DNA of 64,000 nt from Candidatus Omnitrophota bacterium (GTDB lineage: Bacteria; Omnitrophota; Gorgyraeia; Tantalellales; Tantalellaceae). The translations under genes were made by a program, and so were the position numbers. Where the stretch lies: contig JBDRKO010000012.1 in the NCBI GenBank assembly GCA_043813915.1, positions 37,457 to 101,456 on the forward strand, written 5' to 3'. The notes below the pieces were generated by a model, which worked only from the letters and a program-made list of their open reading frames with translations, was not told the DNA's origin and did not search any database. Shown one piece after another: positions 9,101-54,072 of the stretch (positions are counted from its first letter, which is position 1; each line of letters opens with the position of its first letter).

Positions 9101-12100
9101 TCTTTGCGGAAGATCCAGCCGGAAGAGGTCGCGGAATTCATACAACATTATGATGGTGCAACACGAGAATTGGAAAAAGACATGGCGTTGAATGATGAGG
9201 TTAAAGCGAGACTGGGATCATTCTGCAGGAAATATTTAGAGATAAAAGAAGAATTCATCCGATGCGGATATGCTCCGGAAGATGAATACATGGTCAAATG
9301 TTTTAACGGGGAGATAATAGCGGATATGTTCTATTTAGCGGAAAAAGACGGGTTCAATGTTTTGGATCTTCGCAGCAAAAACAGGACTAAATGGATGAAA
9401 GAAGAAAATGGCATAACGATCCATTATGAATTCGAAAAGGAAAAAGACAGATCCGTATCAATGTATGAAGTTGATCAGAATAAGCCAAGGCGTAAAATAG
9501 CTTGTTTCAATGAGTTTTCTTATTATTTGGACGATCTAGATGCGGATGGGGGGAAAAATCTTGGAAATTTTCTTACAAAAACCGTTTATTTTCTATTGTG
9601 GGCAAACAAAAAGCAGAAAAAAACAGAGTTTGTGATCAGCTTTGAAATAAGCGGCGCACTAAAAGAGTACTATATGACTACCGGAGCGCGGATAGGAAGC
9701 AGGACTGATTTCGGCGATGAGATAGCACGCGTGGATCTGGTCGGAGGATTAAGAGCCGGGATATTAACTCCGCAGCAGGCAAAAAGGATTAAAGATCCAA
9801 ATGGCCGTCATAGACTTAATCCCTTTATATGGCGCGTATGGAGCCAGAGAAAGCTGGACAGGTATTTCAGATTGACTAAGGCCATAGAGACAGAGAAACT
9901 CGTCGAAGCTAACCGGGCCTTTACGGAAGCGCGCGCGGCGACGGATATCGAGGATCTGCAGAAGATCCAGCCGGAAGAAGTCGCGGAATTTATAAAAACT
10001 TATTTAACGGAAAAAGTTAAAGAGGAAACGGACACAATTGTCTTCGCGCATGGTACGACAAAAGATGCTATTAGCAATCTTGATGCGGGTTTTTTGAAAA
10101 AAAAGCTGTCTTTTCAGGGAGGAAGGGTAGAAGATATTTTGCGCTTGATCGGGACACATATAGAGGGAAAACTGTATGGAGATGAAAAAGAAATGCTTAT
10201 TTACTGCTTAAGTGAACTGTTAGTCAATACTCATTTCAGGGGAAAAGAGACTATGGGTACCGAGGCGTATCTTTACGTGCCGGAGAAGCGGAGAGACCCT
10301 GGGGTATTAAAATTTGTTGTTTCACAGAAAGGCATTAGAGAGGAAAGATATTGGGGTATACTTAAAAAGACCGCTGCAAAATTTTCCCAAAAAGGCAATA
10401 AAGGGTATGAATATTTTATGGATGTCATACAACGTAAGAAAGATAGAACTAGGGTGGGGGATGGAAGCGCGCTTTTCTGGGTTGGCAGACTTATGGAAAG
10501 AACAAATGTTTACCTTGAATATACACGGAAAGGGGAGGAGATAATAACCAATATCTGGATCGACCTTGGCCCGCTTTTGGAGGGCGACGCTCATGACGAA
10601 CAAGGGAAAGAAACGGTTGTTTTTGCGCATGGGATGACAGAGGGCGATATTAATGTTTTTAAAAAGATCGAAGAAGAAAAAGAGCCTGTCCGCATGCCCG
10701 GGGCCGGACATGTTATTAACTTTGTACGTGCCGAGACCGGGAAAAACATTTGGCGGTCGAAATCGTATGCTTTTGGGGAGTGTCTGGGAGAATTGTTGAA
10801 CAATGCGTGCATGCGTGGAAATGGCGTGGTATCCAGCCACGCGTATGTGTATGAAGCCGGAGAACATAAAGAATATATATTGAGATTCAATATTTCACAA
10901 AAGGGTCTCAATGAAGAAGTCTATTGGCATCTACTTAAGAGAACTGCCAAAAATTTTGCGCAACAAGATAAGAAAGGACCCGCGTATCTTCAGGATACAG
11001 AAAAGCGTGAGCGGGAGGAGATAACAATAGGCGGCGGATCTGGTTTTAAGTTTGTCGGGAGACTTATGGAAGAAACAGATGTCTATCTTGAATATACGCG
11101 AAATGGCGAGAATATCGAGACTGATATATGGGTCAGACTCGAACCATTTTTAGGAGAGACGTTCGATGCCGGACAAAAAGAAACGACAATACGCGACTTG
11201 GCCGGAGAAATGATCATTAAAAAAATAACAAAGGCAAAGATCCAACAGGTCGACAGAAAAAGCCAGGAGCTAAGAACCCGACTTAAAAATTCGTGGGCGG
11301 TAATGCCGGAAGAGTCGCGAAAGACGCCGATAGATATAGTGATAGACCTGTCATTAGTGTCAAAAGAGGACCTTCAGGAAAACATCGAAACCTGGGCGTA
11401 TCTTTTCTTGCTACTGTTCAAACAGGAGAATGTGAATTTTGTTTTCGAAAAAGGCTCTGAAATTCTTAAAGGCGTACGTCTTTCCGAAGAATTGGCTAAC
11501 GATGTCGCTCAGGCGCCTGAGGTAGAAGATGTTTTGAGAGATCTGAAAGCGGCGATAAAAAAGAATGCTAAATTTTCTGATTTTCAATTGGAAGATGAAA
11601 AATTTGATAAGATCCTCGATAAACGTGTTAAGACTGTCCGTAGTGAACCGATTCTCCTCGAAAACCGGGAAAAACCGGAAAAACCGGTTGAGATAACGGT
11701 CACATCTCAAGAATGTTTAATATGGGCAAGTAAAAACGATAAACTTCTCGAGGAGAACCAATATCCCATTGCCATGGAGGGGTTTACGCTTAATGAAGCC
11801 GGAGGCGTTCCGCTTAGGAACTTTGAAGCCGCGGTGATGATAGGTTTTGCCAAGGCCTTGCTTGTTCTTGCCAAAAGAAGAGATATACGGAAAAAACCCG
11901 GAGAAGAGAGAGAACTTCCGCTGCTCAAGAAAAGACTTCTCAACCAGCTTAATGGGTTGTATAGCCTTTGTATAGACGATATTATCAGATTTACAGAGGA
12001 TACACTTGATTCTATGGTACATACTTCACCCATCGTAAGGCTGAATTTAGCAATTGATCTTGCGTTGTCGAAGATAACAAGAATGCCGGTGGGAGGCCTT

Positions 12101-12145
12101 ATTGAGCTTCACAGGGCAATACAATCTGCCCTTCAGGCGGCATAA
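158..12145 (+). CDS. Giant repetitive protein of unknown function, at least 3995 aa. The reading frame stays open, with no stop, from nt 2 to 157, so the gene may begin upstream of the window.
   Basis: It is an uninterrupted 12-kb ORF with coding-like composition. Internal protein repeats include RGSGFREIPGRK..ARLTDDRGIVWEEY (twice), SLFHEI.EYL..HYLLRILQRE (twice) and two roughly 150-aa tandem modules near the C-terminus. The N-terminus has no signal peptide. Confidence 0.75.
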   Translation: MIKENQSPSQVKQHMEEILQTKITKEVNEASDSTRFLPAQKLGKVLACIFKLGGKIDKATSKAFKLFSLELEPEGDSNTAHGEIIRSCFMSLPELTMQNPPVDPPVYKSQKGQRMKALSNIPGEAAAGILRLLKDAEPYKVLGRTIIYKTNEGYTAFKFLKKEQTLQPNGSYAEKREDSGKLVYESEIFDFLNTLKHEKRALQGDYPTAVKIGGERMFCIKTETVPGALSGTPGIDKTGGFCTFMAYETEDPDYFVYLHEEENDKKAEKAAEKNIHDLFFLAKYGLIHPDIIELFHNITAVPRDDEGKYLGMVDISRPIINRRGTGRLHGWEKEVTYPNMRISGAADFAELVNINDLISLDNGHSKYLRKNLYKMQEEKRVQHILAHFFSNYFLSWVLVEGKRLKQHGKIIKQDWKDADKVKKLGDRAKNIYIKAYKTFINSNGEDLEAIVDWDMLARQMLFYLGGAYKDYDIEDIPANIHGMQGLRISHGDGWGFIHEDIIKEATEKNDKERVLDEYFDNAVSSADREFPEGVLIFKPGFEELLGKEENKQLAGILGKLYKEYAKGWRLDGKHEDLGPINGPFPITELIKANYIYTMAMIGRYAYGSRLEKNPESQDPGVSVRGSGFREIPGRKTEYNDRGQIARLTDDRGIVWEEYFYKEEGVFEAVDLYNPVTGKRIRCEPDKAPQKRPEYAKILIKIEEKNGQFRQVGDMNINADSKALFCVANIQLPETGEEKTRGKGIGKTVLRWIDMQAYRQSKPLEIEQAVNPVMAHIAGTLYEVSRLKITVGDKSYSDIHEEEELRNLLFERTYLLSLPGDFTYLTVGKGSDEVSIERVYNSRTGQLVKDNKLPPGYDYKIDKEKKRLIITDPKGNPARLEYFPGITFVGLPDVGKIVKTQEMENDQRVKGQGSGDRVKGPGFREIPGRKIEYNDRGQIARLTDDRGIVWEEYQYRDDGTIDYVSLHNPVTGRTIKCEYKGYPGGIPGNQKWVISREVEENGPVPIGKLIIQEGQDAATGQRYIRQSNLSIRDKDDRNKGISKTVKIWFALRAYRESKVLKFAAIWSPLSAKIDIGVCDISSLRISKEKSARSGGKLIVFSDGEDLKRQLLEQEFYFQGPTGLVRISVEPGTQEIVTTTNWPKEYTREIKDGELVVNDENGERISIRYEDSFYFEGLPDVKKIVGVQDVEESQGSSPSASLGTRESPAAAGSPLAEKSQSSGSNGPGKTEIERINIEELRELITGIHEYIIRPGSPYALESGLCLSTNVVLYRTIKNIRTIKNEIIKNGGTRGRVAADMPEPKAEICRKQIGAEEHWFLLVDSDFVVDIFPNYTGRRTGLHKTVIVMTKKEAEELNGWYKNAEQSKMNNHTLENIRRMESEMAKTGADIALREWLDTQIDRRMRVEKIKDEKDTAQMMKKTNTVETDPEKVFIGNLKGLMTGFYGTFVGERSIYRAFERGDKGIDLSLLRLFAKISGKVPELNVELCYSDNAETKYWYLLVNSRIIVSMYPPEEFNSEWIVMTEEDAALESKLYDRKNRNKITGTTVFERARKRWDNPAMEEYEPMVDELIEKWLKYRVNNIGSPAKEKESIRNGHSNPRDTSENFRNIGKVYDDNMDIAVTQTSEKEAQLEVTAYNARNQKEETFHLNASIHGPPTKEQKQRITDTAKKEHKSLIATILSLFPDDIPLYILTDPLKEDLFGFASIKNKFIALHRTIKDDPVALFHEIGEYLIRVPSLVSRVSRLQLELDEKNRLTVTINGERQEPVVLSEATLKFIEDEKMEGEWGPNWQTSQHYLLRILQREVFGKADETLTEKIIDGQMTARMEKEGSRAEPWGPIKVNGLSIYAKEVIKPSEIRKTLDIWFDGKEERYFLREQWEKAINAAIKRARPAFLVKIESQEGELMGISYCHKGLFPFEEGEADIYIGDFSEIPGKYRGKGLGEVIMAKGMERMVSAHRDGIDREEIYVGHPAEHDEEEYADKGKRAERFLYQLGFNDICFSWFETLSQEDKAKSRFMGISAYKAQGLVNRVKGMIGGTRKTISKPKQMKLFPQAPEQLKLFPEVSSTSGENIAELEKARKKAVRIKRKLKKKKITDKQLSLFQREKGPENTGLGEDMLKKTLEEQGVDINRVSEFLADFSKNIKEEKKNTFLIQLADCFRESKKTRLGTKLEIMEPYLSDVMDSLQIKMDMANFHFTINHGTTSVGYMAESVNIKNEYHDFTIYLIEEEIDKTYTVNLLVDIDKCLATQPRLADAIMKLCDDRGTTIGIAKQAANNKKGTEGRINGIATRSKDGERQLIVLPLYDVNGEKIGYEKPAGYAYDADVLIDGRRVTRLEAILSHEIAYLFLRRTQKSQKWILKVDQKRIKKFTEKHSEIEWDIKRYEENMEEGLFELVFEIYGMRAERINAEFDFRSLSLEEKETVLKKTFVSAESSFNVHEFFADTLAAYWLVPEFVKEKDRIMFDLFEAIGVWKDIEKGARTDDENNVTDPPGRIGKYYTEIIADDEPGENRWIVKAMRHGASKEAAIDLGRTFRAPPVDDEVKTEIRDAVDSRDASRKTAYKELVKEILEQFPQKTVLYIYKNLYRDLFGFNDVSKKMMALYRELYDDKKTRPVSLFHEICEYLGTLKVIGIRARGDKLFVRIKGRETEVDVRRARKSLKEDGEDWINWTEQEINKPENRHYLLRILQREIFGEKDELLTKKIKDLGERGYRRSAETDTKKAGMATLDQMIRELARDMDITGMENEIKVFYEKYIRLAMRVPVGGQILLSSIRAEHIADMFYLKKAYQFDLFELLEGKRETKWVKRDGAVTDEYVFYNRNDGTYVNKVSEAGKKTFLGKATDGRFGLEDRAHDGGRNIGNFRIKTFSLNKWFQKTEGEMSLNIDRGKDTNDPYALCRYYETIGAHVDWRLLSGSMLITGGLDAGISTKKETERIEGLEKYVRNVWSQRKRDRYFRLTKDIETARLAEANQAFTDAHMDVDIDSLRKIQPEEVAEFIQHYDGATRELEKDMALNDEVKARLGSFCRKYLEIKEEFIRCGYAPEDEYMVKCFNGEIIADMFYLAEKDGFNVLDLRSKNRTKWMKEENGITIHYEFEKEKDRSVSMYEVDQNKPRRKIACFNEFSYYLDDLDADGGKNLGNFLTKTVYFLLWANKKQKKTEFVISFEISGALKEYYMTTGARIGSRTDFGDEIARVDLVGGLRAGILTPQQAKRIKDPNGRHRLNPFIWRVWSQRKLDRYFRLTKAIETEKLVEANRAFTEARAATDIEDLQKIQPEEVAEFIKTYLTEKVKEETDTIVFAHGTTKDAISNLDAGFLKKKLSFQGGRVEDILRLIGTHIEGKLYGDEKEMLIYCLSELLVNTHFRGKETMGTEAYLYVPEKRRDPGVLKFVVSQKGIREERYWGILKKTAAKFSQKGNKGYEYFMDVIQRKKDRTRVGDGSALFWVGRLMERTNVYLEYTRKGEEIITNIWIDLGPLLEGDAHDEQGKETVVFAHGMTEGDINVFKKIEEEKEPVRMPGAGHVINFVRAETGKNIWRSKSYAFGECLGELLNNACMRGNGVVSSHAYVYEAGEHKEYILRFNISQKGLNEEVYWHLLKRTAKNFAQQDKKGPAYLQDTEKREREEITIGGGSGFKFVGRLMEETDVYLEYTRNGENIETDIWVRLEPFLGETFDAGQKETTIRDLAGEMIIKKITKAKIQQVDRKSQELRTRLKNSWAVMPEESRKTPIDIVIDLSLVSKEDLQENIETWAYLFLLLFKQENVNFVFEKGSEILKGVRLSEELANDVAQAPEVEDVLRDLKAAIKKNAKFSDFQLEDEKFDKILDKRVKTVRSEPILLENREKPEKPVEITVTSQECLIWASKNDKLLEENQYPIAMEGFTLNEAGGVPLRNFEAAVMIGFAKALLVLAKRRDIRKKPGEERELPLLKKRLLNQLNGLYSLCIDDIIRFTEDTLDSMVHTSPIVRLNLAIDLALSKITRMPVGGLIELHRAIQSALQAA

Positions 12146-43512: not shown

Positions 43513-44835
43513 ATGAAAAGATTTATTTGGTCACAGCTACTTCATTGGAAAGAGAAAAAAGACCGGAAACCTCTTATTTTAAGAGGTGTTCGTCAAGTTG
43601 GGAAAACATACATACTCCGTTCTTTTGCTAACACTTACTTTTCAAATGTTCATTATGTAAATTTCGAAAAAGAGGAACAATTGATCTCAATATTTGACAC
43701 TGATCTTTCGCCTGTACGGATTCTAAAAGAATTAAGTTTTCATTTGGGTCGATCTATTGATAATAAAAATGACATTATGATCTTTGATGAGATCCAGAAC
43801 GCACCCAAAGCTCTTACCAGCCTGAAATACTTTTATGAAGAAATGCCGGAAATGGCCATATGCTCGGCAGGTTCATTGCTGGGACTTCACTTGGGAGCTG
43901 AGGCATTCCCGGTAGGTAAAGTAGATTTCCTTGAGTTATATCCCTTTTCTTTTGCCGAATTTTTAAGAGGTGTCGGTGACCAAAAATCTTATACTTTTCT
44001 CAGGGATTTTAAAAAGGGACAAATTATCTCGGACCATATACATAAACATTTATGGGAACAACTAAAATTGTATTTCGTTGTAGGCGGCCTTCCTGAAGTC
44101 ATTAATACCTACTCTTCACATAAAGATAATTTATTCTCCGCGCTAGAACTAGTACGAAAAAAACAGAAAGAGCTTATTGTAGCTTATACCGCGGATATGG
44201 CAAAACATTCCGGAAAGCAGAACGCCATGCACTTAGAGCGCTTATTTAGGAACATACCTGCCCAACTTGCCAAAGAACAGGACTTTTCAGTTTCCAGGTT
44301 CAAGTTTAAGGGAATAATTCCCGGTATTAACAGATATTCAAAGCTGGCAGGTTCAATTGATTGGCTGATTAACGCGGGATTAATTATCAAATCCAACATA
44401 GTAAACCACTGTGAACTTCCCTTCTCTGCTTACACAAAAGAAAATTTCTTTAAACTTTATCTTTTTGATCCGGGTATTCTTGGTGCCTTGAGCGATCTTC
44501 CCTCTAAAGCTATCTTGGACTACGATTATGGCTCATATAAAGGATACTTCGCTGAAAATTATGCCGCTTGTGAATTCAAATGCTTTGAAGGCAAAGACCT
44601 TTATTCTTGGCAGGAAAACACCGCGGAGGTGGAATTTTTAAGAGAAATAGATGGTTCCATTTTTCCCATTGAAATCAAGTCGGGGAACATAACCCAGGCA
44701 AAAAGCCTTAAAGTGTTTGCGGACAAATATGATCCGCCATACCGCACTGTAATGAGTGGGAAAAAACCACTTTTCGATGATATAAATAAAATTCACAAGT
44801 ACCCTTTATACCTAGCTTCGCGTTTTCCTGTTTGA
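43513..44835 (+). CDS. AAA+ ATPase with a C-terminal DUF4143-like domain.
   Basis: It has the Walker A motif GVRQVGKT and a Walker B motif IMIFDEIQ. Confidence 0.7.
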   Translation: MKRFIWSQLLHWKEKKDRKPLILRGVRQVGKTYILRSFANTYFSNVHYVNFEKEEQLISIFDTDLSPVRILKELSFHLGRSIDNKNDIMIFDEIQNAPKALTSLKYFYEEMPEMAICSAGSLLGLHLGAEAFPVGKVDFLELYPFSFAEFLRGVGDQKSYTFLRDFKKGQIISDHIHKHLWEQLKLYFVVGGLPEVINTYSSHKDNLFSALELVRKKQKELIVAYTADMAKHSGKQNAMHLERLFRNIPAQLAKEQDFSVSRFKFKGIIPGINRYSKLAGSIDWLINAGLIIKSNIVNHCELPFSAYTKENFFKLYLFDPGILGALSDLPSKAILDYDYGSYKGYFAENYAACEFKCFEGKDLYSWQENTAEVEFLREIDGSIFPIEIKSGNITQAKSLKVFADKYDPPYRTVMSGKKPLFDDINKIHKYPLYLASRFPV

Positions 44836-44906: not shown

Positions 44907-44923
44907 AGATTGGCTGGGATGCC
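44907..44923. repeat. Direct repeat of the tRNA-Gln 3' end (17 nt, TGGCTGGGATGCCTGG), a candidate att site.
   Basis: It is identical to 45103..45119 and 52314..52330. Confidence 0.7.
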
Positions 44924-45102
44924 TGGCCGATTCGGACTATGATGCTTCTGTTCGTCGCATCATTTACGCCCTTATCGGCATTTCCTTGCGCCTTTGGCGC
45001 TCGGTCAGACTCGGCGTTACATTAATTTCATATTATTTTCGCCATCGTCCACTTACACAGACCAATAAACAAAAAACCCCTCTAACGAGGGGCATTTTGT
45101 TT

Positions 45103-45121
45103 ATGGCTGGGATGCCTGGAC
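45103..45121. repeat. Direct repeat of the tRNA-Gln 3' end (19 nt), a candidate attR of the integrative element.
   Basis: TGGCTGGGATGCCTGGACT matches the tRNA-Gln 3' end at 52314..52332. Confidence 0.75.
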
Positions 45122-45216
45122 TATCAGCTAGGCTTTCCCAAGTCCTTTAGTCACTTGTGATTGTAAACTTTCTTTAAATTTTTGGACAGTTTTTGGTCAG
45201 TTTCTAGTGAAATAGA

Positions 45217-47994
45217 TTATGCCTGCTGCAAATATAGTTGTTCTAATTCGTGGAATTCCTGAGCTCCATCAACAGCTTTAAACGCAGGTGGAAGTGCGTA
45301 TGTATCTACATAATACAATTTAGCCTTTGAGCAACCGTTAACCATTAGTTCAAGCTCCTCAACCGAAAACTTACTCTTTCCTTCTATCAAATTTACGCCA
45401 TATCTCTCATAAATCTCCGTGAACTTATCCATTGTTTCGCCCCTAAGCTCTTCATATTCTTCCCATTCCCTGCTTTCCTTATCTTTTACCACTGATCCCT
45501 TTTTTTGTTTTTCCGGCACCTTATCCCACGCAACACGAAGAGCAGCCAAGGATGCGCCCATAACTGCCGCAGCAGTATAATTGGGAACTGCAACTCCCTG
45601 CTTTGTGCTAGCATCCTTAAGCGCGACAACATATTCTCTATCGTCAATAATCCTATCCTTCGTAATATCGTCCAGGTTTTCCAACCTTATGTCAATCAAC
45701 CCATCTCCGGCTTCCGCCCTTGTATGTAATTTAAAGACGCTTTCAATTTTATCGTTCGGGAATTCATCAATATTTCTTAGTTCATTTTTTACTAAGTCAA
45801 TAACCCTTGCGGCATCTTTACCTTTAAACCCATATCTCATATTTAATCCATAAGCATTATTTCGTGTGATTATAAGTGCTAACCTTTTTATGTTTTGTTC
45901 AAGCTGCTCCTGTTTTTCTGGAAGACTTGTTAGATCTATATACATATTTGTCGGCTGATTTTGAAGAATTCTAGATGTTCTTGTTAATAAATATCTTTCA
46001 TCGTTGTTTTCTGGTTTAATTATTGTTGATTTCATATAATCTGTTTGTTTTTCTATTTTCCTATCAACAATTTCCTTATATCTGTTAGCTAATACTTTCC
46101 ACGTTTTTTTAGATCTTTCATCAGTATATAAGGGTAAATACTTGGTCTCTCTAAAATCTGGTTCGCCAAAATATTTGTTTCTAATATTTTCTAATTCAAG
46201 CCCTAATTCCTTTACTCGCTGTGTCAGGTTTGGCACCTTTTGCCGAGCCATAATATTTTCTATATTTCCCCATATTCCTTCATCAGCATTTTCCCATCTT
46301 CGCTGGCTAACAATTTGGAGAATATTTCTGGTTTGATTGGCTAAAACAATGGTAGTTCTAATAGACTCTGTTTCTTCAGGCGTAATAAACGATTCCAAAC
46401 GAGATATAATTTCATCAAAATCTGGTCCAAAATTTATGCCAAACTTATTTGACAACCCAAAGATTAGATTTGAAATACCTCTAAACTGCAATTTTTTAAT
46501 ATTTTTAATATCAAGTGGTAATTGAGAGGGTTTTCCTTGCCATACCTGTAATTGCCTGCATAAATAGGGATGCACTTCTGCCCACATGCCGTCCAGATCT
46601 AAATGAGATTCAACATCTCGATTAAAAACTTCACTATATGAGCCTTCATTAATTTCAATTATTTGTCCCATTGCAAAATAATGATAAATGTCAAAATCTA
46701 TACGTCTATTTTCTATCTCATTTCCCATCAATAATGTAGACCACAAATCTCGTTTAAAACCAAGCGAAAATAATAATTCCGTAAGCATAAGATTTACTTT
46801 GTCTGGCTGTGGCCCCCAGTAATACAGGTCAACATCTGAAGAGAATGTTTTCATATCTCGGAAATAGATTACTGCAGAAGAATCAGAAGAAACTCCTAGT
46901 TCGTTCCAAACTACTGGCAACAATTGATTAATAACCTTTTCAACAAATGTATTGGACCCTAAAGCAACTTCTTTATATATTACATCAAAGGATTTTTCTG
47001 ATAATATCAATTTTTTTTGCTTGTTTCTCAATTCTTCATATTCTCTTTTTAATGTAGCCAAAATGTCCGTCTTGCCCTGTCGAGTTATTGTTGAATTTTG
47101 CTGTGTTGTAGTAATAGTACTATTAGTGTTCTCCATTCGTACAATATTTTTGTATGAGGATAAATCTTCCCCAAGTAATTCAACGGACATATAACCTAAA
47201 ATGTCTGAAATATGATAGCACGCTGTCCAAGGATTTGTTGGATCGATCCCTAAATTTAACAGAACATCAATTAATCTACATAAAGACTGCTTTTTAACCC
47301 CATTATTAAATAATTCCAAAATGGTAGACACTACTGCGTTATCTGGTGAATCGATAGCCTGTTGCCATAAATTGCGAATTAACAAACTCTCTTCATCCTG
47401 GGGAAACTTTGATATCTTTCCACTTATATGTTTAGTAATCCAGTTTTCATATTTTTTAGTTTTTGCTATTTTATTAATGCAAATTCTATCGTTTTCTTGA
47501 CAAACATTCCCCCAGTTTAATTGTTCCATTGGCAAATGCTCTCTTAACACAGCATCTTCAACACTTATGTCTCTTCCTGCTTGCTTTTTAGTATCCGTTC
47601 TTTCCTCTGTTTGCGTATCATTATATTCAATCTCAAAAATAATATTTTCCTTCCCAATTACGTAAAAATTTGCCCTTACAGAATTTTTATCTCTTTGAAC
47701 CTCTGAAAGAAATTCTATGTTGGCCTTCCCCTTTTCAATGCCTTGTTCATGATCTTCGATTAATATTCCGTTAACAGTTGAATGCGATTTCCCGGCCAGA
47801 AGAAGTCTTACGCCTGCAAGTATTTCAAATTGTGTTTGAAGGGACATTTCAATACCTGCATCTACCAAGGCACTGAACCCTGACTGAGGAGAAAGGGTGC
47901 TCCACATATCTCCATAGACTGGATTGGATGCAAAAATGGCTCCTGCTAACAGTATAGATATTAATTTCATATAGAATTTTCTCGTAATAAACAT
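45217..47994 (-). CDS. Hypothetical 925-aa protein with an N-terminal signal-peptide-like segment (MKLISILLAGAIFASNPVYG); the start may be at 47970.
   Basis: It is a long ORF with no recognisable family. It is terminated by the bidirectional hairpin CCCCTC-taac-GAGGGG at 45066..45095. Confidence 0.7.
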   Translation of the reverse strand: MFITRKFYMKLISILLAGAIFASNPVYGDMWSTLSPQSGFSALVDAGIEMSLQTQFEILAGVRLLLAGKSHSTVNGILIEDHEQGIEKGKANIEFLSEVQRDKNSVRANFYVIGKENIIFEIEYNDTQTEERTDTKKQAGRDISVEDAVLREHLPMEQLNWGNVCQENDRICINKIAKTKKYENWITKHISGKISKFPQDEESLLIRNLWQQAIDSPDNAVVSTILELFNNGVKKQSLCRLIDVLLNLGIDPTNPWTACYHISDILGYMSVELLGEDLSSYKNIVRMENTNSTITTTQQNSTITRQGKTDILATLKREYEELRNKQKKLILSEKSFDVIYKEVALGSNTFVEKVINQLLPVVWNELGVSSDSSAVIYFRDMKTFSSDVDLYYWGPQPDKVNLMLTELLFSLGFKRDLWSTLLMGNEIENRRIDFDIYHYFAMGQIIEINEGSYSEVFNRDVESHLDLDGMWAEVHPYLCRQLQVWQGKPSQLPLDIKNIKKLQFRGISNLIFGLSNKFGINFGPDFDEIISRLESFITPEETESIRTTIVLANQTRNILQIVSQRRWENADEGIWGNIENIMARQKVPNLTQRVKELGLELENIRNKYFGEPDFRETKYLPLYTDERSKKTWKVLANRYKEIVDRKIEKQTDYMKSTIIKPENNDERYLLTRTSRILQNQPTNMYIDLTSLPEKQEQLEQNIKRLALIITRNNAYGLNMRYGFKGKDAARVIDLVKNELRNIDEFPNDKIESVFKLHTRAEAGDGLIDIRLENLDDITKDRIIDDREYVVALKDASTKQGVAVPNYTAAAVMGASLAALRVAWDKVPEKQKKGSVVKDKESREWEEYEELRGETMDKFTEIYERYGVNLIEGKSKFSVEELELMVNGCSKAKLYYVDTYALPPAFKAVDGAQEFHELEQLYLQQA

Positions 47995-48173
47995 AGTTTT
48001 GACATTATACTACTTTTATCTTGTTAGTGCAATAGAAAGTATGTAGCTTTTTCCCTCTTAATTACAATTATCTCTATAGAAGGGAGCTGAGAGTCTTTGA
48101 ATCCCGGCGGAAAGCCCTAAACCCTTGTTAGCTAAAAGACTTAAGGCTTACGCCTGTACATCAATTGTACCGT

Positions 48174-49256
48174 TTATTCTTCTTTCTTCTCTTTTTCGTA
48201 GCTAAATGCCTTAAATCGTTCATGTAAATAATCCGGCCTTAGATGTCTATATCTGCGTGTCATTGATGCGCTCTTATGGCCCAAGACCTCCTGAATGGCT
48301 GTTTCTGGTATATCCCTCATATGAGCAATAGAGCAAAAAGTGTGTCTCAGTGAGTGCACATGAACCTCTTTGATCCTTGCCTCCTGACAGCATTCTTTTA
48401 CTTTTTCCAACACCCTACGATTATTAATTACATGTCCTTTCGTTGTCTGAAACAACAGTTCTCCCTCTGTCAGCATTTGGTCTTCTATAATATTTTTTAT
48501 TTCATCGGCAATAGGGGCATATCTGTTCTCTTTATTTTTCGGGTGCCACTCTTTGCCGTCTACTTCTTTCCCGCGGATATACAATAGCGATCTTGCTAAA
48601 TCTACATCATCCTTAGTTAAATGAAGCACTTCGTTGACTCTCATACCTGTAAATAGTATCGTTGCTACGATTTCAAAATAAGGCACTTTATAATCTTTTT
48701 CTTTCATCTTTTTCAGAAGCAGAATAGCTTCTTCTTCTGTTAGATTTTCGACATGTGGTGTTGCCACTTTCTTTGGGGATGTAGCTACTGTGGGATTATT
48801 ATTAGTCCACTTGCGCGCTATAGCATATCTGAACAGGTTAGAAATTACCATCCTCTCCATGTTCCAGGTTCTCCTGGCTATCCCTCTTTCTGTCCGGGAA
48901 TAAAGGTACTCTTCTATCATGCCTGTGTTAATGTCGCTAATATTGCTCACCTTTTTTATTTCAGCAAACTCCTGAAACATCTTTATTATGCCCTGGTACC
49001 TTCTCTTAGATTCTCTTGTAGTAAGATCTGTATCAAACTTACTTCGCAGATAGCTTCTAACTACCATCTTAAAATCCGCTCCCTGCACATATCCGTCTTT
49101 TCTTTTTTGCGCTCTCTGCAACTGATTATCTTTTGCCATACGCTCTGCTTCAGATTTATTGTATGATAAGAATTTCCATACAGCTTTACCAAATTCAGTA
49201 GGACGTATGTAATATCCCTTACATCCTGCCCTGGTAACAATCTTTAATTTCTTCAT
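48174..49256 (-). CDS. Tyrosine-type site-specific recombinase (integrase).
   Basis: Its C-terminal catalytic motifs are HSLRHTF and GH...MTRRYRHL with the catalytic Tyr. The N-terminus is a SAM-like domain. Confidence 0.9.
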   Translation of the reverse strand: MKKLKIVTRAGCKGYYIRPTEFGKAVWKFLSYNKSEAERMAKDNQLQRAQKRKDGYVQGADFKMVVRSYLRSKFDTDLTTRESKRRYQGIIKMFQEFAEIKKVSNISDINTGMIEEYLYSRTERGIARRTWNMERMVISNLFRYAIARKWTNNNPTVATSPKKVATPHVENLTEEEAILLLKKMKEKDYKVPYFEIVATILFTGMRVNEVLHLTKDDVDLARSLLYIRGKEVDGKEWHPKNKENRYAPIADEIKNIIEDQMLTEGELLFQTTKGHVINNRRVLEKVKECCQEARIKEVHVHSLRHTFCSIAHMRDIPETAIQEVLGHKSASMTRRYRHLRPDYLHERFKAFSYEKEKKEE

Positions 49257-49495
49257 ATTAAGCGCCTCCTGTTATTATCAACCTTAAAATCTTTCATCAC
49301 ATCTTCTGGGTCAAATCTTAATGCATTACCTATCTTGATGTATGAAATAAGATTTTGCGAGGTCATCCTGTAAAGTTTTGATAACTTGATCTGGTACATC
49401 TCACAGATTTCCTTTGCTGTAAGATACTGTTTACTTAAGTACTTATTACTCATTTTCTTAATATCCTTTTTTGTATCTATGTCTATTAGGCACAC
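49253..49495 (-). CDS. Helix-turn-helix excisionase/AlpA-like DNA-binding protein.
   Basis: It is 80 aa with the HTH YLTAKEICEMYQIKLSKLYRM. Its stop overlaps the integrase start. Confidence 0.6.
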   Translation of the reverse strand: MCLIDIDTKKDIKKMSNKYLSKQYLTAKEICEMYQIKLSKLYRMTSQNLISYIKIGNALRFDPEDVMKDFKVDNNRRRLI

Positions 49496-50558
49496 TTTAC
49501 CCTAGAGCTATAAGTCGCCCGAGAATTCATAAAATCCCCGTTGTGCCTAGTTTATAGACGCACGAATAGCCTCTATAGTTGCAAAACATAAGCAACTACA
49601 CTTAACTATTGTTAATGATTATGGTTAGATTTTTGTCTGGCAAAGAAAAGGTAGGATTCTCTGCATAAACAATAAAAATAGAGGTCTTATGTAAACGACC
49701 TCTTTCGGGTGTGTTTTTTCTTGATATAACTAAGTAACTTTCTTAGCTTCACTATTATTATATCACTGAAATACGGTTTTTTCAACCACCCCACAAAACC
49801 CCTACCCCGTGGGCGTTTGCTCTCCAAAAAAGCAACTACCAACATCTTTCCTGTCATGACCTTAACTTTCATGCGACCACTCTCCTTTCTTTTGTGAACG
49901 TTTAATTATGTTCACTAATTGTTGATTTTCTTATAGAAAGAAGAAGAACCGGTGCTAAAAGGCACATGGGGCACGAAACAGGAACAACTAGAATATGCTA
50001 ATCGTATATAGGACCTCAGGAATTTTCCAGGATATATTCTTTCTAATGGAGTTTAGTTTTTACTGTTTGATTTTATTTTCAGCCTTTTATAAATTCTCCG
50101 GTTTTGTCTGTTAGTATATAAGTGTAAGACAAGGAAAGAGTGGAGGACAGTGATCGGCAAGATCAAGATGGTAGTGACGACAGTCACCTCATCAACATGA
50201 GGCGTTCGCAAACAGTGATTTTACACTTATGATGTTACGGGATATTTTATCTATTTTTTATGATTAGCGAACGACCCACGCAGGAACAAATATGTAGGCC
50301 TATTTGAGCAAATGGTGAAATTAGGTATGGCTTCCATAATAAACTACAAGGCATCCATAGGAGAACATGAAAGAATATCTTATACCCGATAATAGGCCAT
50401 CTAAGAAGCTAAATAGGCTTCCAATGGCTTCTAAGAAAACATGTCATATTCGCATAAGGAATGTTGTTCTGCCGCCAAACTTTGGAAAGATAGCTATGGA
50501 TTTACACGCGCGGAGAATAAATCATCAGGTGATTGATGTGAAAGAGAAGACGGAACAC

Positions 50559-52046
50559 TTATTCGGAGCTAATTGATCCTATTATTCCAGATAAAAAAAT
50601 CTGATCTCGTGCTTTCTTTTTTAATTCATCGCTGGGGTTTGCGTAAACCTTTTTACATATGTCAAACAAAACTCTCGTATCGAGAAGACCTATGCTTGCT
50701 TCCCTTGCACCTTCCAGCGCAGCAGGATCTGAGTAAAAATTTCCTCTGTTATTTGGAGCTTTATCTCTCTGATAGTTTAGGATTAGAAGTCCTGGTGGTG
50801 ATACATTTTTGATAAGCTTACTATATCGAAGCATATGATTTTTGACTTGCTCCACATATTCGTTACATGGTCCCCGGGTAACACCTTTTGCCTCACATAA
50901 GATTTCTTTGCCGTCCGCCTTCAGTATAAAATCATTGATTAAAGCCTTATCTTCTTTCTCTAGCATCGCATCCATGTCAACAACTTCAAACCCTAACCAT
51001 TCTAGTGTCTTTTTTAATGGTGGTTTTAACTTTTCTTCCTCGTCAACCTTGTCATCATCTCCGTTAGTCAAAAGAGCTCTAAAATGTTTAGAGTTTTCTC
51101 TAGCACTACTGCGTTTAGATTCTAGGTCTTCTATTTTCCCATTAAAGGTTTCTCTTACTTCTTTTTTCTCATTGATAATTCGTATTTCGTCCGAAAATTT
51201 ATACGTCTCTGTATCAAGCCAAAGGCCTTCTTGATAATCCTTACTAAATAGAGCTTCGGGAGATAGCGCAGGTAGCTCTCTAAGAATATGTTTTATTATA
51301 TTTATGTTGACCGCTTTAAAGTCTGGGAAAAACCCAACATTCCCACCATTCGGTAAATGACAAAAATAACTATGTACTAAGGTATTTTCTCCCAGAGCAA
51401 AAAACTTATCGCCTTCACCTATGTGGTCTTTTACGCAATTAAAATGCATTCCCCTTAACAGGTCAACAGAATGCCCTAATGCACCTGTCATAAGCTGTTC
51501 TATATAATTTCCTACGGCTTCGACTTTTGGTTCTGTACGAAAGAATAGATCATACTCCTCGTCCGTATCCCCTTGCGTATAAGTTATCTTCCCTCCTTTG
51601 ATGTCTAGTAGTTTCTTTACCAACAAATCATCTTCTTCAATCCTTGTCTCGCCCATAAAAACTAACACTGTCCCATTTTTTTTCAAAACTTCTGTCCCCA
51701 AACTGTATAATCCTTCCAGGCCACAACATGAGTCACTGTTACGTTTTGGAAAGCCACATATTAAACCGTGAGACTTATAAGAATATTTCTTGTATTCACA
51801 AAATGAGTTTATGCGAACTGATTCTTCGGCATCAGATGGAACTGTTGGCATGTTGTAACAACTCCTATACGCAACAATATCCACCCGGTGTGGATCTGTC
51901 GGAATATTTAATAAATCTCCGTTTAGACCAGTAGCTCCTAAATGAACTTTGTAGCCATAGTCCCTTAAAGTTTGTGCCTCTGTCGGACTAAAATCGATTA
52001 GGAGTATTCTTGGACGTATAGTTTTTTCTATATTAAAAATCTTCAT
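50559..52046 (-). CDS. Hypothetical 495-aa protein. Its C-terminal region may carry a PD-(D/E)xK-like nuclease signature (D..EAK).
   Basis: It is a long ORF in the island. The C-terminus reads DFILKADGKEILCEAKG. No family is recognised. Confidence 0.65.
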   Translation of the reverse strand: MKIFNIEKTIRPRILLIDFSPTEAQTLRDYGYKVHLGATGLNGDLLNIPTDPHRVDIVAYRSCYNMPTVPSDAEESVRINSFCEYKKYSYKSHGLICGFPKRNSDSCCGLEGLYSLGTEVLKKNGTVLVFMGETRIEEDDLLVKKLLDIKGGKITYTQGDTDEEYDLFFRTEPKVEAVGNYIEQLMTGALGHSVDLLRGMHFNCVKDHIGEGDKFFALGENTLVHSYFCHLPNGGNVGFFPDFKAVNINIIKHILRELPALSPEALFSKDYQEGLWLDTETYKFSDEIRIINEKKEVRETFNGKIEDLESKRSSARENSKHFRALLTNGDDDKVDEEEKLKPPLKKTLEWLGFEVVDMDAMLEKEDKALINDFILKADGKEILCEAKGVTRGPCNEYVEQVKNHMLRYSKLIKNVSPPGLLILNYQRDKAPNNRGNFYSDPAALEGAREASIGLLDTRVLFDICKKVYANPSDELKKKARDQIFLSGIIGSISSE

Positions 52047-52313
52047 ATCTTAGATTATACAACTAACTCCCGATAGTCTCAAGCTACAAAAGAGTTATAC
52101 TCAAACTGGCTTCATTTGTCCAATCTATTTTCCTTATTTACCTGTACAACAATTGGACAGTTTTGGACAATTTGTACATGTTTTGTACAGTATTACCAGC
52201 AAATGGAAACAACTACCCACAACTAAAAGAAAAAGCCCAAACCCTTGATTTACAAAGATTTGAGCTCTTTCTTTTTTGTTTTTATGGGCTTCTGGAAATA
52301 CCCAAAAAGATCT

Positions 52314-52388
52314 TGGCTGGGATGCCTGGACTCGAACCAGAAACGGATGATCCAGAGTCATCTGTGTTACCAATTACACCACATCCCA
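52314..52388 (-). tRNA. tRNA-Gln (anticodon CTG).
   Basis: The reverse complement folds as TGGGATG/CATCCCA acceptor, D-arm GTGT..ACAC, anticodon stem GATGA-CTCTGGA-TCATC, and T-arm TCTGG-TTCGAGT-CCAGG, with discriminator G and CCA. Confidence 0.85.
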
Positions 52389-52395
52389 GCGTGAT

Positions 52396-52647
52396 TTATT
52401 TAATTGATTCTCGCAGTATTTGTCTTAAACTGCTTCTTCCTTTCGTTGTCTTAAAATACCGTTCTCTTCTCAAGCTATCTTTTTTATCAAAAAATGCTTC
52501 ATAAAATACTAACTCCGGGTCTTTCATTCTGCTGCTTGTATGGCCTTCACCCTTCTTATGTTCCGTTATTCTTCTCTCTATGTTCCCGGTTGATCCTATG
52601 TAAAACTTTTCACTTTCCTTACTCCGCAGTACATACACATAATGCAT
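52396..52647 (-). CDS. Small stand-alone GIY-YIG nuclease-family protein.
   Basis: The N-terminus HYVYVLRSKESEKFYIGSTGNIERRITEH contains GIY..10..YIG and the conserved Arg. An AAGGA RBS precedes it. Confidence 0.8.
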   Translation of the reverse strand: MHYVYVLRSKESEKFYIGSTGNIERRITEHKKGEGHTSSRMKDPELVFYEAFFDKKDSLRRERYFKTTKGRSSLRQILRESIK

Positions 52648-52719
52648 TTTTTATACATCCTTGATCCAGCCCAGAACCGCTTAGGGTTCTGGGCTACCCG
52701 GCATCCTTTGTGGTGCCGG

Positions 52720-52791
52720 GCAGAGTCATCTGTGTTACCAATTACACTTGCCGTATACCCCACGAGGTATGCGGCCACATCCCAGCGTGAG
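52720..52791 (-). pseudogene. Duplicated 5' half of tRNA-Gln (acceptor through anticodon stem), carrying a 28-nt hairpin insertion in the D-arm.
   Basis: Nt 52720..52750 and 52779..52791 match 52355..52394. The inserted ttgccgtataccccacgaggtatgcggc forms the hairpin CCGCATACC/GGTATACGG. Confidence 0.75.
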
Positions 52792-52906
52792 GGTTATTAT
52801 ACTATAATAGCTTTATTTTAAAAAGTTTTTTGTGGTATACTTTTGAAATAGCGTATCGTATATGCGTAGTTAAGTAAAAACACCAAGGAACGGGGGGATA
52901 TGTATA

Positions 52907-53080
52907 ATGACAAAAGAGCCTAAAAATTACGCTTATTGGAAAAGTATTCTAGATAACGAAGAAAAAGCGGCGGAATTTATAGTGAAAGGCAGCGAACGGC
53001 AAAAAAAAGAACTTAAAAAAGTGTTTAAATATATGGAGATGAAAAAGGAAAAGGAACAGGCCGATCTATTTCCGGGGTAG
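52907..53080 (+). CDS. Possible small protein of 57 aa (MTKEPKNYAYWKSILDNEEKAAEFIVKGSERQKKELKK...).
   Basis: It is an ORF below the ORF-track cutoff, preceded by GGAACGGGGGG and followed by a terminator at 53106. Confidence 0.3.
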   Translation: MTKEPKNYAYWKSILDNEEKAAEFIVKGSERQKKELKKVFKYMEMKKEKEQADLFPG

Positions 53081-53105
53081 GCCGTATCTAGATCAAAGCT
53101 AATGA

Positions 53106-53130
53106 ACCCTCACTAATCGTGGGGTTTTTT
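53106..53130 (+). terminator. Intrinsic terminator CCTCAC-taatc-GTGGGG plus T6. An inverted, near-identical copy lies at 44876..44906.
   Basis: The sequence is aatgaaccctcactaatcgtggggtttttt. The reverse complement of 44876..44906 is ctgaatgaaccctcactaatcgtgggggtttttt. Confidence 0.6.
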
Positions 53131-53156
53131 GTTTCGGTAAATTTGGGGCTAAATTC

Positions 53157-53211
53157 GGGACGTTTCCTAATTAATAAGAGATTAGAAAGCAAGCAAATAG
53201 GGAAACGTCCC
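53157..53211. repeat. Palindromic element of 55 nt: GGGACGTTTCC(C)TATT - a 24-nt loop (aataagagattagaaagcaagca) - AATAGGGAAACGTCCC. This is copy 1.
   Basis: It is near-identical to 58356..58410. Confidence 0.85.
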
Positions 53212-53301
53212 TGATTTATCCCTGATTTAAACGTCTCAAATTTAATTGCAGACGTGTTTACACAAATATAGTATTATAATCATATTAACCATGATCGAAT
53301 T

Positions 53302-54072
53302 ATGAAAAAAGGACTAAAAAAAATCTTCATGTTCTCTGTTTCGACCTGTCTTTTGATCGCGTATCAAGCGGAGGCAGGAGAGGTCGGCAAGAGAGATTTT
53401 ACCGAAAAAATAGAGATCCCCGCCAATGCGTCAGGCGATAGCAAGTTTGAGGCCTACCTTACACATAAACGAGCCTATAAACTTCTTAAAGAATACCAAG
53501 CTAGTGGAGACCTAGATAAGCTCTATATAGCCTTGAATCTTGCCGGTGAAGCACTCGTCTTAGATCCTGGAGAATCCCGTTACTGGGTGACTTTAGGTGA
53601 TATTCATTCTGAAATGACTAAATTCAATATATTCCGTGCGGGCGAGTGGGCTGAGCAAGCATACCAGGAAGCCCTTGTCTTAAATCCTGAAGATACAACT
53701 ACTATGGTGCTATTAGGGATCAGTCTTGCAAAAAGCGGTGACTATAAAGAGGCCCTGCAGTATTTAGAACCGGCGCTTACCGATGATACCTATTTGATGA
53801 CATATGCTATCGGGCAGTGGTTGAATCTATGTTATCTTGCCGGCAGCCAGACTAAACGCGGCACTATATATTATGAGGAGTTTTTAAATGTCAACCCGGA
53901 GTTTTATTATTTAAGGTTATATAAAGCTTTTCTTTATAAAGCGCATTTTGATTATGTGAATGTCGAAAAAGAATTAAAGATCATTTTGGCCGATAAAGAA
54001 GCAGACTCTAAAACCAAAGAGTTTGCCTCTAATCTCCTGAAAGACCTCAAGACAGAGGAGGCCAAAGGGTAA
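53302..54072 (+). CDS. Secreted TPR-repeat protein.
   Basis: It has a signal peptide MKKGLKKIFMFSVSTCLLIAYQA and TPR-like helices (AYQEALVLNPED...GDYKEALQYLEPAL). Confidence 0.7.
   Translation: MKKGLKKIFMFSVSTCLLIAYQAEAGEVGKRDFTEKIEIPANASGDSKFEAYLTHKRAYKLLKEYQASGDLDKLYIALNLAGEALVLDPGESRYWVTLGDIHSEMTKFNIFRAGEWAEQAYQEALVLNPEDTTTMVLLGISLAKSGDYKEALQYLEPALTDDTYLMTYAIGQWLNLCYLAGSQTKRGTIYYEEFLNVNPEFYYLRLYKAFLYKAHFDYVNVEKELKIILADKEADSKTKEFASNLLKDLKTEEAKG

Follow-up and report, generated by a model that had tools for sequence, protein, structure and literature searches.

A GIY-YIG nuclease gene with paired hairpins inside a tRNA-Gln transcription unit of an Omnitrophota bacterium, and a putative cassette family at tRNA and tmRNA genes

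To our knowledge, an essential RNA gene can be entered without being destroyed in two ways, by self-splicing introns and by integrase elements that restore the 3′ end of a tRNA gene. A 64,000 nt stretch of the Candidatus Omnitrophota contig JBDRKO010000012.1 (hereafter, the window) carries another arrangement: on its minus strand, a gene for an 83 aa GIY-YIG nuclease, preceded by a pair of hairpins, lies between a broken copy of the first half of a tRNA-Gln gene and the complete tRNA-Gln gene. The locus is very probably a member of a family of selfish, tRNA-linked GIY-YIG cassettes with hairpins. Its relatives are denoted here by our own locus numbers (prefix L).

Several described systems share parts of this arrangement. 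Introns of tRNA genes sit in the anticodon loop, and the broken tRNA copy in the window is interrupted there as well, recalling group I tRNA introns with endonuclease genes, one of which lies near a related cassette (L007); the window locus differs in that there is no ribozyme and nothing to splice, since a complete tRNA follows, and a duplication takes the place of splicing. Integrase-borne islands likewise use tRNA genes as landing sites and preserve them by a carried copy of the displaced part, but they duplicate the tRNA 3′ end, encode a tyrosine recombinase and span kilobases, whereas the cassette duplicates the tRNA 5′ half, is about 0.33 kb long and encodes a nuclease only; it has neither a recombinase inside nor tRNA 3′-end repeats. 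The closest proteins in sequence and fold are the single-domain UPF0213 proteins BH0048 and EF2693 (about 90–100 aa), a group for which we know of no established function. The structure-specific nuclease Slx1, also related, carries a zinc-binding domain in addition and, as the partner of Slx4, acts on branched DNA. No link of UPF0213 or Slx1 to tRNA genes or hairpin repeats was found in the literature searched.

Repetitive extragenic palindromic (REP)-like repeats have so far been tied, as far as we know, only to HUH transposases. Most similar to the hairpins described here are REP doublets forming hairpins (REPINs). REPINs are short palindromes arranged as inverted doublets (PMC3337134, PMC3116915), and one end of REP palindromes is tagged with GTAG or CGTC (PMC3733652). 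The cassette hairpins resemble them in forming inverted doublets with reverse-complementary loops, in occurring both dispersed across metagenome contigs and in tandem, and in flanking one coding gene. They differ in that the partner is a GIY-YIG nuclease and not the HUH (Y1) transposase of the REP-associated tyrosine transposase (RAYT) pair; the stems start with CCATG, CCGTG or CCCTG, with no GTAG or CGTC tag; and the density is low, with none elsewhere in the window and a strong link to tRNA and tmRNA (transfer-messenger RNA) ends. A literature search for a connection between GIY-YIG proteins and REPINs found none.

The nearest precedent is SegB, a GIY-YIG enzyme encoded in the tRNA cluster of phage T4, whose 27 bp site includes the conserved T-psi-C stem-loop motif and whose gene spreads together with the tRNA genes around it (PMC2330249). 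Both SegB and I-TevI consist of two domains, with a C-terminal part that binds DNA (NUMOD3, zinc finger, helix-turn-helix) (PMC2330249). A GIY-YIG gene among tRNA genes is common to both settings, and the selfish logic and the co-transfer of tRNA resemble the window and a further locus described below (L200). The phage enzymes, however, act in phage co-infection, while the window protein is encoded on a bacterial chromosome and consists of the catalytic domain only, and its family has a hairpin doublet, a duplicated part of the target tRNA, and many tRNAs plus tmRNA as partners. The ingredients are known (GIY-YIG selfish genes, REP-like palindromes and tRNA landing sites). Apparently undescribed is the combination of a minimal nuclease with its own doublet, residence in tRNA/tmRNA operons, and a target kept by duplication or delivery; no description of small GIY-YIG genes with hairpins and tRNA was found in the literature covered, which leaves out subscription journals.

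The tRNA-Gln locus and its nuclease

Read along the minus strand, the locus consists of TATAAT, a split and dead tRNA-Gln copy, two hairpins, a ribosome-binding site, the GIY-YIG gene and an intact tRNA-Gln(CUG). The individual features are:

52796–52801, minus strand: TATAAT, a promoter-like −10 box read from the sequence, 5 nt upstream of the repeat start
52775–52790, minus strand: upstream repeat, part 1; leader −6 to −1 (TCACGC) and tRNA-Gln positions 1–10, 16/16 identical to 52379–52394
52747–52774, minus strand: 28 nt insertion in the D stem of the remnant; hairpin CCGCATACC/tcgtgg/GGTATACGG plus CAAG, with one C·A mismatch
52721–52747, minus strand: upstream repeat, part 2; tRNA-Gln positions 10–36, 27/27 identical to 52353–52379
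52697–52720, minus strand: hairpin 1 of the doublet, CCCGGCACC-acaaag-GATGCCGGG
52668–52695, minus strand: hairpin 2 of the doublet, AGCCCAGAACC-ctaagc-GGTTCTGGGCT, an 11 bp perfect inverted repeat
52662–52669, minus strand: tRNA resumption CTGGATCA after hairpin 2, 8 nt, equal to tRNA-Gln positions 34–41
52658–52662, minus strand: Shine-Dalgarno-like AAGGA, read from the sequence, 10 nt before the ATG
52396–52647, minus strand: GIY-YIG nuclease gene, 83 aa, single domain (Pfam PF01541, E 5.7e-17)
52395, minus strand: single spacer base between the GIY-YIG gene and the downstream leader
52353–52394, minus strand: downstream, uninterrupted repeat copy, 42 nt; leader −6 to −1 (TCACGC, 52394–52389) and tRNA positions 1–36
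52314–52388, minus strand: complete tRNA-Gln(CUG) (ARAGORN; Rfam tRNA 60.7 bits, E 2.5e-12)
52228–52272, minus strand: terminator-like hairpin and T run downstream of tRNA-Gln

An earlier note on this DNA, made from the sequence alone, had listed the main elements of the locus, and ARAGORN, Rfam, Pfam and repeat identity place all of them on the minus strand. Its description of the repeat needs revision. The intact copy is 42 nt long instead of 40, and extends 6 nt instead of 4 nt beyond the tRNA 5′ end; the upstream copy, given as 52751–52791, occupies 52721–52790, the former span covering only the hairpin and the first 16 nt. The tRNA resumption at 52669–52662 had been missed. The direct repeats are 100% identical over 16 nt (TCACGCTGGGATGTGG; 52790–52775 and 52394–52379) and 27 nt (GTGTAATTGGTAACACAGATGACTCTG; 52747–52721 and 52379–52353), with spacings of 396 and 368 nt, the difference of 28 nt being the D-stem insertion, whose boundary is ambiguous by 1 nt. 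Part 2 of the upstream repeat ends in the anticodon loop, at the third anticodon base (position 36), and tRNA-Gln positions 34–41 resume after hairpin 2, so that the doublet looks inserted into the anticodon loop with duplication of CTG.

The cassette proper (52720 to 52395) lies between the tRNA-Gln promoter and the tRNA, and is bracketed by the 42 bp duplication (−6 to 36). The upstream copy is a dead remnant that later gained a third family hairpin in its D stem; the 28 nt insertion is a solo member of the same hairpin family as the doublet. Hairpin 2 and the ATG are only 20 nt apart, leaving no room for a promoter of the cassette's own, and a consensus scan found no complete −35/−10 pair on the minus strand. 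TATAAT presumably marks the tRNA-Gln promoter, from which the whole unit would now be transcribed, and the terminator-like hairpin is probably the end of that unit. At the other end of the gene, the tRNA starts 7 nt past the stop codon. Folding of the 151 nt leader gives z = −4.0 for the sense RNA and z = −5.5 for the antisense DNA; these scores, together with matches to a covariance model built from other loci (R1, below), indicate structure beyond chance.

An intron reading was rejected, in agreement with the earlier note, since a complete tRNA lies downstream and none of the catalytic-intron models gave a match. In the region 51900–53300, neither Intron_gpI nor any Rfam family other than tRNA was found even at E ≤ 10, apart from sub-threshold chance matches.

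The PF01541 match spans residues 1–71 of the 83, and all residues of the catalytic motif are intact. All 46 relatives compared share Y5, Y16, G18, R26, E50, R61, E62 and K66, at least 90% retain H30, and E62 aligns with the conserved Glu of BH0048. A profile search of the Protein Data Bank returned 1zg2 (BH0048, E 5.2e-13) and 1ywl (EF2693, E 4.9e-12), followed by Slx1 (5e-4). The AlphaFold2 model (predicted local distance difference test score, pLDDT, 90.2) has the secondary structure beta-beta-alpha-beta-alpha-alpha, a predicted three-stranded sheet with helices as in the GIY-YIG superfamily; Foldseek matched it to 1zg2 and Slx1 (7cq3; template modelling score, TM, 0.67, root-mean-square deviation 2.2 Å), and less well to I-TevI (1ln0) and the UvrC N-terminal domain (1yd5). 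In length (80–110 aa), in having the catalytic domain only, and in being closest to BH0048/EF2693, the protein agrees with the UPF0213/YhbQ-like group. No second or DNA-binding domain is present in the 83 aa, and so it lacks the C-terminal DNA-binding region of homing endonucleases. With a single domain, and with UPF0213 and Slx1 as nearest relatives, it is a minimal nuclease of the structure-specific branch and not of the I-TevI/SegB type; we regard it as a UPF0213/Slx1-type GIY-YIG nuclease with predicted activity.

The closest proteins are 83–116 aa long and 50–65% identical, those with names coming from Patescibacteria metagenome-assembled genomes (MAGs). The family is large, with 6,506 cluster representatives at E ≤ 1e-10 and 26,703 at E ≤ 1e-3. 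Scans of the window protein with PADLOC, PHROGs and NCBIfam gave partial, weak matches only, and TIGR01453 and the PHROG homing-endonuclease models match residues 1–39 only. A role in a defence system was rejected, the PADLOC matches being weak and partial. A phage origin was likewise rejected: a viral contig collection contained a single match to the hairpin, and the PHROG matches are weak and partial.

Relatives at tRNA and tmRNA genes, and their hairpins

Related loci were collected by scanning the peptide RERYFKTT, a query without context information, over one genome per species. The 64 loci obtained come from Omnitrophota, Planctomycetota, Patescibacteria, Verrucomicrobiota, Flavobacteriia, Proteobacteria, Nitrospirota and Cloacimonadota. 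A tRNA, tmRNA or tRNA fragment on the same strand directly adjoins the gene in 49 of the 64, against a chance expectation roughly estimated at 1%. One locus, L059, belongs to the cultivated Robiginitalea aestuariiviva M366. In arrangement (a), that of the window, the tRNA (Gln, Leu, Tyr, Ser or Met) follows the stop codon, with a gap mostly of 0–16 nt (exceptions are L013, 35 nt; L055, 49 nt; and L049, 92 nt). In the commoner arrangement (b), a tRNA (Asn, Met, Lys, Ala, Gln, Glu, Cys, Tyr or Ser) or tmRNA ends 60–400 nt upstream of the start codon, and the first hairpin starts at the discriminator base or CCA, its first three bases often doubling as CCA. About two thirds of the relatives are placed just after a tRNA 3′ end, so insertion specifically at tRNA 5′ regions, as the earlier note had it, does not hold for the family. 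The window's own protein clade is found at tRNA-Gln only, yet mixes Omnitrophota and Planctomycetota, and an outgroup clade (L044, L053, L060, L062 and L063) has neither tRNA nor hairpins.

The earlier note's central proposal, that a small and selfish cassette with a GIY-YIG gene is associated with tRNA genes and leaves the tRNA intact, is supported by these 49 loci, by tRNA remnants in 14 loci, and by the tRNA replacement at L200. It had also named an observation that would speak against the proposal, GIY-YIG paralogues without tRNA fragments; the survey did not contradict the proposal in this way. The family is one of cassettes of about 0.33–0.45 kb, made up of a hairpin doublet, a ribosome-binding site and a single-domain GIY-YIG gene, inside tRNA/tmRNA transcription units.

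A 5′ remnant of the following tRNA is present at 14 tRNA-downstream loci (11 of the 64, plus L197, L198 and L199, close relatives of the window that were fetched after the scan). The junctions between remnant and hairpin fall at these positions of the tRNA:

Anticodon loop: window, L002, L003, L008, L011, L012, L016
D loop: L028, L042
T loop: L015, L052
8/9 linker: L198, L199
12/13 (D stem): L197

The junction is at an unpaired position in 13 of the 14, L197 being the exception, and in six tRNA-Gln loci the repeat ends exactly at anticodon base 36. Hairpins resembling the D-arm hairpin of the window occur at position 12/13 in L002, L003 and L012, and the tRNA resumes for 6–8 nt after the doublet in L002, L003, L011, L012 and L197 also. 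From its sequence, L197 appears to have arisen when a D-arm hairpin and an anticodon-loop doublet were joined by deletion. The D-arm hairpins and this deletion product suggest that hairpins inserting into the remnant, and deletions from one hairpin to another, are eroding it. Loci lacking a remnant also exist (L005, L055).

Two loci are of interest for their composition. L052, from the genome of a single Patescibacteria cell, carries the GIY-YIG gene twice within 1.5 kb (810–1598 and 2305–2828), one after the tmRNA gene and the other between a 77 nt tRNA-Ser remnant and an intact tRNA-Ser, heading a tRNA array. In L007, from a Phycisphaerales MAG, a group I intron (Rfam 79.6 bits) lies in an apparent tRNA-Asn (1862–2136, 2140–2181), with an HNH-like coding stretch before it; about 190 nt farther along, a duplicated tRNA-Asn 3′ fragment is fused to a hairpin doublet and GIY-YIG gene.

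The earlier note had mentioned two further hairpins at the locus. They are present, but they are not incidental: a doublet precedes nearly every gene of the tRNA-linked clades, and is also dispersed alone. The consensus of hairpin 1 is CC[A/G]TG[A/T]ACC-loop-GGT[T/A]CA[T/C]GG and that of hairpin 2 is CCCTG[A/T/C]ACC-loop-GGT[..]CAGGG; stems start with CCATG, CCGTG or CCCTG, and ACC/GGT beside the loop is invariant. The loop of hairpin 2 is approximately the reverse complement of that of hairpin 1 (e.g., acgttg and caacgt). The hairpins always lie in the 5′ leader of the GIY-YIG genes and their subtype tracks the nuclease clade, while the order and orientation of the two relative to the gene are variable. 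The stem sequence of hairpin 2 of the window recurs in L003 and L012. In 38 loci, no Rfam family matched the hairpins at gathering score. Mismatches on the sense strand of the stems comprise 15 G·T (G·U) and six A·C, a bias too weak to decide between a role as RNA or DNA, and the variable orientation of the doublets points the opposite way.

The covariance model R1 was built from 17 doublets of other loci and run unfiltered over the whole window. It matched the doublet (52670–52720; 39.2 bits, E 5.6e-9) and the D-arm hairpin (21.8 bits, E 3e-4), with no other match below E 0.1 in the 64 kb. Within this stretch, then, the hairpins were not seen as a genome-wide repeat of the organism. Among the 64 protein-seeded loci, R1 gave 65 matches over 30 loci, all just upstream of the gene or in repeat arrays beside it.

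A metagenome scan for CCATGAACC-N6-GGTTCATGG gave at least 120 loci. Among the matches listed, 12 of 125 hairpins abut a tRNA 3′ end exactly, and 13 of 125 have a GIY-YIG gene in the next 700 nt. Plain intergenic DNA holds many clear doublets, some in tandem and one between infA and rpmJ; solo doublets also occur at L042 and L013. Density is low, about one site per locus of 6–13 kb. Target-site duplications at solo doublets are inconsistent, with TTCGGAA flanks in L094, L146 and L170 only. Tandem arrays of doublets, similar to the clustered REP arrangements known as bacterial interspersed mosaic elements (BIMEs), were seen in L123 (4092–4656) and L132 (260–711), with about seven units, in L008 (2321–2477, three) and in L094 (884–986, two); those in L123, L132 and L008 are directly upstream of a GIY-YIG gene. 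In L108 (9391–9414), a 24 nt hairpin, CCATGAACC-acgttg-GGTTCATGG, is apparently in frame within an aminotransferase-like coding region (read by eye), which recalls the gene-inserting palindromic elements of Rickettsia.

Spread of the cassettes and alternative explanations

Several loci carry signs of movement or turnover. Copies occur at different tRNAs within one MAG (L003 and L037, L024 and L048, L041 and L061), in addition to the two copies of L052. Close protein relatives are found at different RNAs, and members of different phyla share clades. The contig of L001, 99.9% identical to the window, starts with the 3′ end of a GIY-YIG gene joined via the 16 nt repeat to the hairpin-bearing copy, so that its first 86 nt are a unit-to-unit junction of a 396 nt unit, derived from a circle or else from a tandem copy. 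L121, the orthologue of L013, lacks 232 nt, almost the whole open reading frame (ORF), with the hairpins kept; by its sequence it is best described as an ORF-deletion derivative and not as an empty site.

The most telling locus, L200, was reached through the neighbours of L197 and L199 during the search for empty sites:

L200, 4078–4523 (identical in L201, L202 and L203): resident tRNA-Leu(UAA), allele A, split into an 8 nt 5′ piece and a 3′ piece, with a 77 aa GIY-YIG gene and an intact tRNA-Leu(UAA) between them

This gene belongs to a different subfamily from that of the window. An intact tRNA-Leu(UAA) of another allele (B), with another acceptor stem, lies 8 nt past its stop codon, and the remainder of allele A follows nine bases on. 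When the pieces of allele A are rejoined, they give a perfect tRNA-Leu with the acceptor stem GCCCGGG/CCCGGGC. The 3′ piece of allele A carries a distinct 19 nt hairpin, CTGCCTGCCGGCAGGCAGG, in the anticodon loop, and similar hairpins (CTGCCTGCC) precede the GIY-YIG genes in L038 and L043. Judged from the two alleles, a block of nuclease plus tRNA has broken up the resident tRNA and taken its place.

The explanation towards which we lean is a widespread selfish cassette family that spreads in a structure-directed way. For the means of spreading we propose, tentatively and with a little less than even confidence, a structure-directed break followed by copying. The cassette would be read from the tRNA promoter, and the tRNA, at the transcript's 3′ end, would be freed by normal tRNA processing. 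The nuclease probably cuts structured DNA, such as hairpins or a cloverleaf-like fold of the tRNA gene, and not a long sequence. Repair of the break would copy the cassette with the adjoining tRNA segment, and duplication of the target would stand in for splicing, so that one functional tRNA is always regenerated. The hairpins would be cis-acting partners of the nuclease that insert at unpaired tRNA positions, and they may also cause local tandem duplication and deletion. The upstream remnant would be tolerated and then decay through hairpin insertions, which may stabilise the cassette by interrupting a direct repeat that could otherwise delete it.

A number of observations weigh against this explanation. 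The cutting of structured DNA is something we infer from the lack of a DNA-binding domain and the likeness to Slx1, and the intact tRNA-Gln 7 nt downstream would itself be a target unless its context protects it. A search via the neighbouring TPR gene (53302–54072) found no cassette-free allele of this tRNA-Gln locus; in the only relative (87% identity), synteny ends at 53284 and a tRNA is absent from that place. The L001 junction comes from a short-read assembly. Compensatory changes in six of nine stem pairs favour it, but were counted in a set selected for pairing, making the test partly circular and the percentage of paired bases circular. There are no family hairpins outside the cassette in the 64 kb window. 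A 3′ remnant after the gene is kept in only three of 25 tRNA-upstream loci (L010, L021 and L031), the solo D-arm hairpins are placed in a stem and not in a loop, and the tRNA resumption tracks host-specific bases in L002, L012 and L197, which fits no model.

Of the homing-like mechanism acting on a tRNA gene that the earlier note had suggested, the association with tRNA stands. A classical free-standing homing endonuclease would recognise a long site in a cassette-free tRNA-Gln gene and make a double-strand break near the anticodon, after which homologous repair from a cassette-bearing allele would copy the cassette, one homology arm being the upstream remnant (−6 to 36) and the other the tRNA 3′ half. 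The GIY-YIG catalytic domain would suit such an enzyme, T4 SegB is a precedent within a tRNA cluster (PMC2330249), and the common repeat end at base 36 in six tRNA-Gln loci also speaks for it, as does the single protein clade formed by the tRNA-Gln cassettes. Yet the 83 aa are all catalytic domain, where I-TevI and SegB have C-terminal DNA-binding parts (PMC2330249), the nearest relatives are UPF0213 and Slx1 rather than I-TevI, and an uninterrupted copy of the target is present in cis. The catalytic-domain-only protein and the intact presumed target 7 nt downstream make sequence-specific homing doubtful. Moreover, close relatives reside at many tRNAs and tmRNA, at four different positions within the tRNA, and the remnant matches the host's own tRNA in most loci, whereas interspecies arms of 36–40 nt would give chimeric tRNAs. 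We consider classical homing unlikely. Excision of the 396 nt unit through its repeats as a circle, and re-entry into tRNA-Gln by a Campbell-type single crossover (1–36), with the nuclease only stimulating the process, is improbable. An integrating circle with −6 to 36 does predict the observed layout, including the duplicated 6 nt leader, and the first 86 nt of L001 are the junction expected of a circle or tandem copy, but tandem duplication gives the same junction and arrays of hairpin modules exist (three units in L008, about seven in L123). Homology of 16–42 nt is also very short for a RecA-dependent crossover, and neither the tRNA-upstream loci without duplications nor the whole second tRNA allele of L200 would be explained.

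It is also conceivable, with a rather small probability, that nothing moves today: a domesticated small nuclease (e.g., for repair or nucleic-acid processing) would be co-transcribed with tRNAs, the hairpins being RNA stability or processing signals and the remnants by-products of local duplication at fragile, palindrome-rich loci. A very large family under purifying selection with invariant catalytic residues, hairpins that are always in the 5′ leader, the lean of sense-strand mismatches towards G·U (15 versus six), and loci without a remnant (L005, L055) speak for this. The patchy distribution, the mixed phyla within clades and the switching of target tRNA between close relatives speak against it, as do the MAGs with several copies at different tRNAs, the ORF-deletion derivatives, the varying orientation of the doublets, doublets far from GIY-YIG genes and tRNAs (once apparently in frame in an ORF), and the L200 block that breaks a resident tRNA. 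Finally, the hairpins could be an independent REP/REPIN-like family that is moved by another enzyme and prefers tRNA 3′ ends, the GIY-YIG gene being merely adjacent and the tRNA remnants arising from hairpin-driven rearrangements. The solo doublets at L042, L013 and in ordinary intergenic DNA speak for such independence, as do the figures of 13 and 12 among the 125 listed matches (GIY-YIG gene within 700 nt and exact abutment to a tRNA 3′ end, respectively). Starting from the protein, though, R1 matches were found only beside the gene (30 of 64 loci) with a subtype that follows the nuclease clade, L121 demonstrates that a solo doublet can remain after ORF deletion, and the neighbouring ORFs examined include no HUH or other transposase, no systematic search having been made. 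We give this explanation little credence.

Under the favoured explanation, a selfish cassette family spreading by recognition of structure, it is possible, if rather doubtful, that these loci represent a new class of bacterial mobile element. Its minimal, Slx1-like GIY-YIG nuclease, paired with REPIN-like doublets, would target the structure of tRNA/tmRNA genes (their unpaired positions and ends) and not their sequence, and the essential target would be spared because the tRNA is duplicated or carried along, in part or as a whole. The element would be a GIY-YIG counterpart of the RAYT/REPIN pair, with tRNA genes as both landing pad and portable cargo, moving alleles between genomes as at L200. 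If true, duplication or delivery of part of a tRNA would be a third way into an essential RNA gene, a new enzyme class would be linked to REP-like repeats, and the small UPF0213-like GIY-YIG proteins would gain a role, many of them being selfish passengers of tRNA/tmRNA operons. The phyla concerned (Omnitrophota, Planctomycetota, Patescibacteria, Verrucomicrobiota, Bacteroidota and Proteobacteria) have been seen mostly through metagenomes. If confirmed, a structure-selective nuclease of minimal size, with a DNA hairpin as its defined partner, could also serve as a reagent.

There is a practical side, as tRNA fragments and hairpins beside small GIY-YIG ORFs break short-read assemblies and confuse tRNA annotation. 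The short-read contigs of L001, L075, L197 and L199 end at or within the cassette or tRNA repeat; L075 starts at the position corresponding to 53266 of the window, and L197 and L199 end 12 and 53 nt past the GIY-YIG stop codon. Assemblies thus seem to be interrupted at these cassettes, which MAGs may under-represent.

A neighbouring integrated island

Directly downstream of the same tRNA-Gln, an integrated island occupies 44910–52332 (minus strand). The last 19 nt of the tRNA-Gln 3′ end, AGTCCAGGCATCCCAGCCA (52332–52314), recur at 45122–45104, and 17 nt of them at 44926–44910. The island encodes an excisionase-like protein (49495–49253) and a tyrosine integrase (49256–48174), as well as ORFs of 495 aa (52046–50559) and 925 aa (47994–45217) without matches in Pfam, NCBIfam, PADLOC or PHROGs. 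The integrase belongs to this separate island with its own 3′-end repeats, and not to the cassette. With the cassette at its 5′ side and the integrase island at its 3′ end, the tRNA-Gln gene is a double hotspot.

Near both island ends, at 52153–52170 and 45180–45200 (minus strand), are the motifs TTGTCCAAAACTGTCCAATTG and CTGACCAAAAACTGTCCAAAAA. The shared ACTGTCCAA occurs on the minus strand only at these two island-end sites, with one plus-strand copy at 39998. From their sequence and placement, the motifs could be arm-type binding sites of the integrase. An AAA_14/DUF4143 ATPase gene (43513–44835, plus strand) comes directly after the outermost repeat of the tRNA-Gln 3′ end and may belong to what is left of an older island. 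Far from these elements, near the start of the window, a very long ORF (158–12145, plus strand) encodes 3,995 aa.

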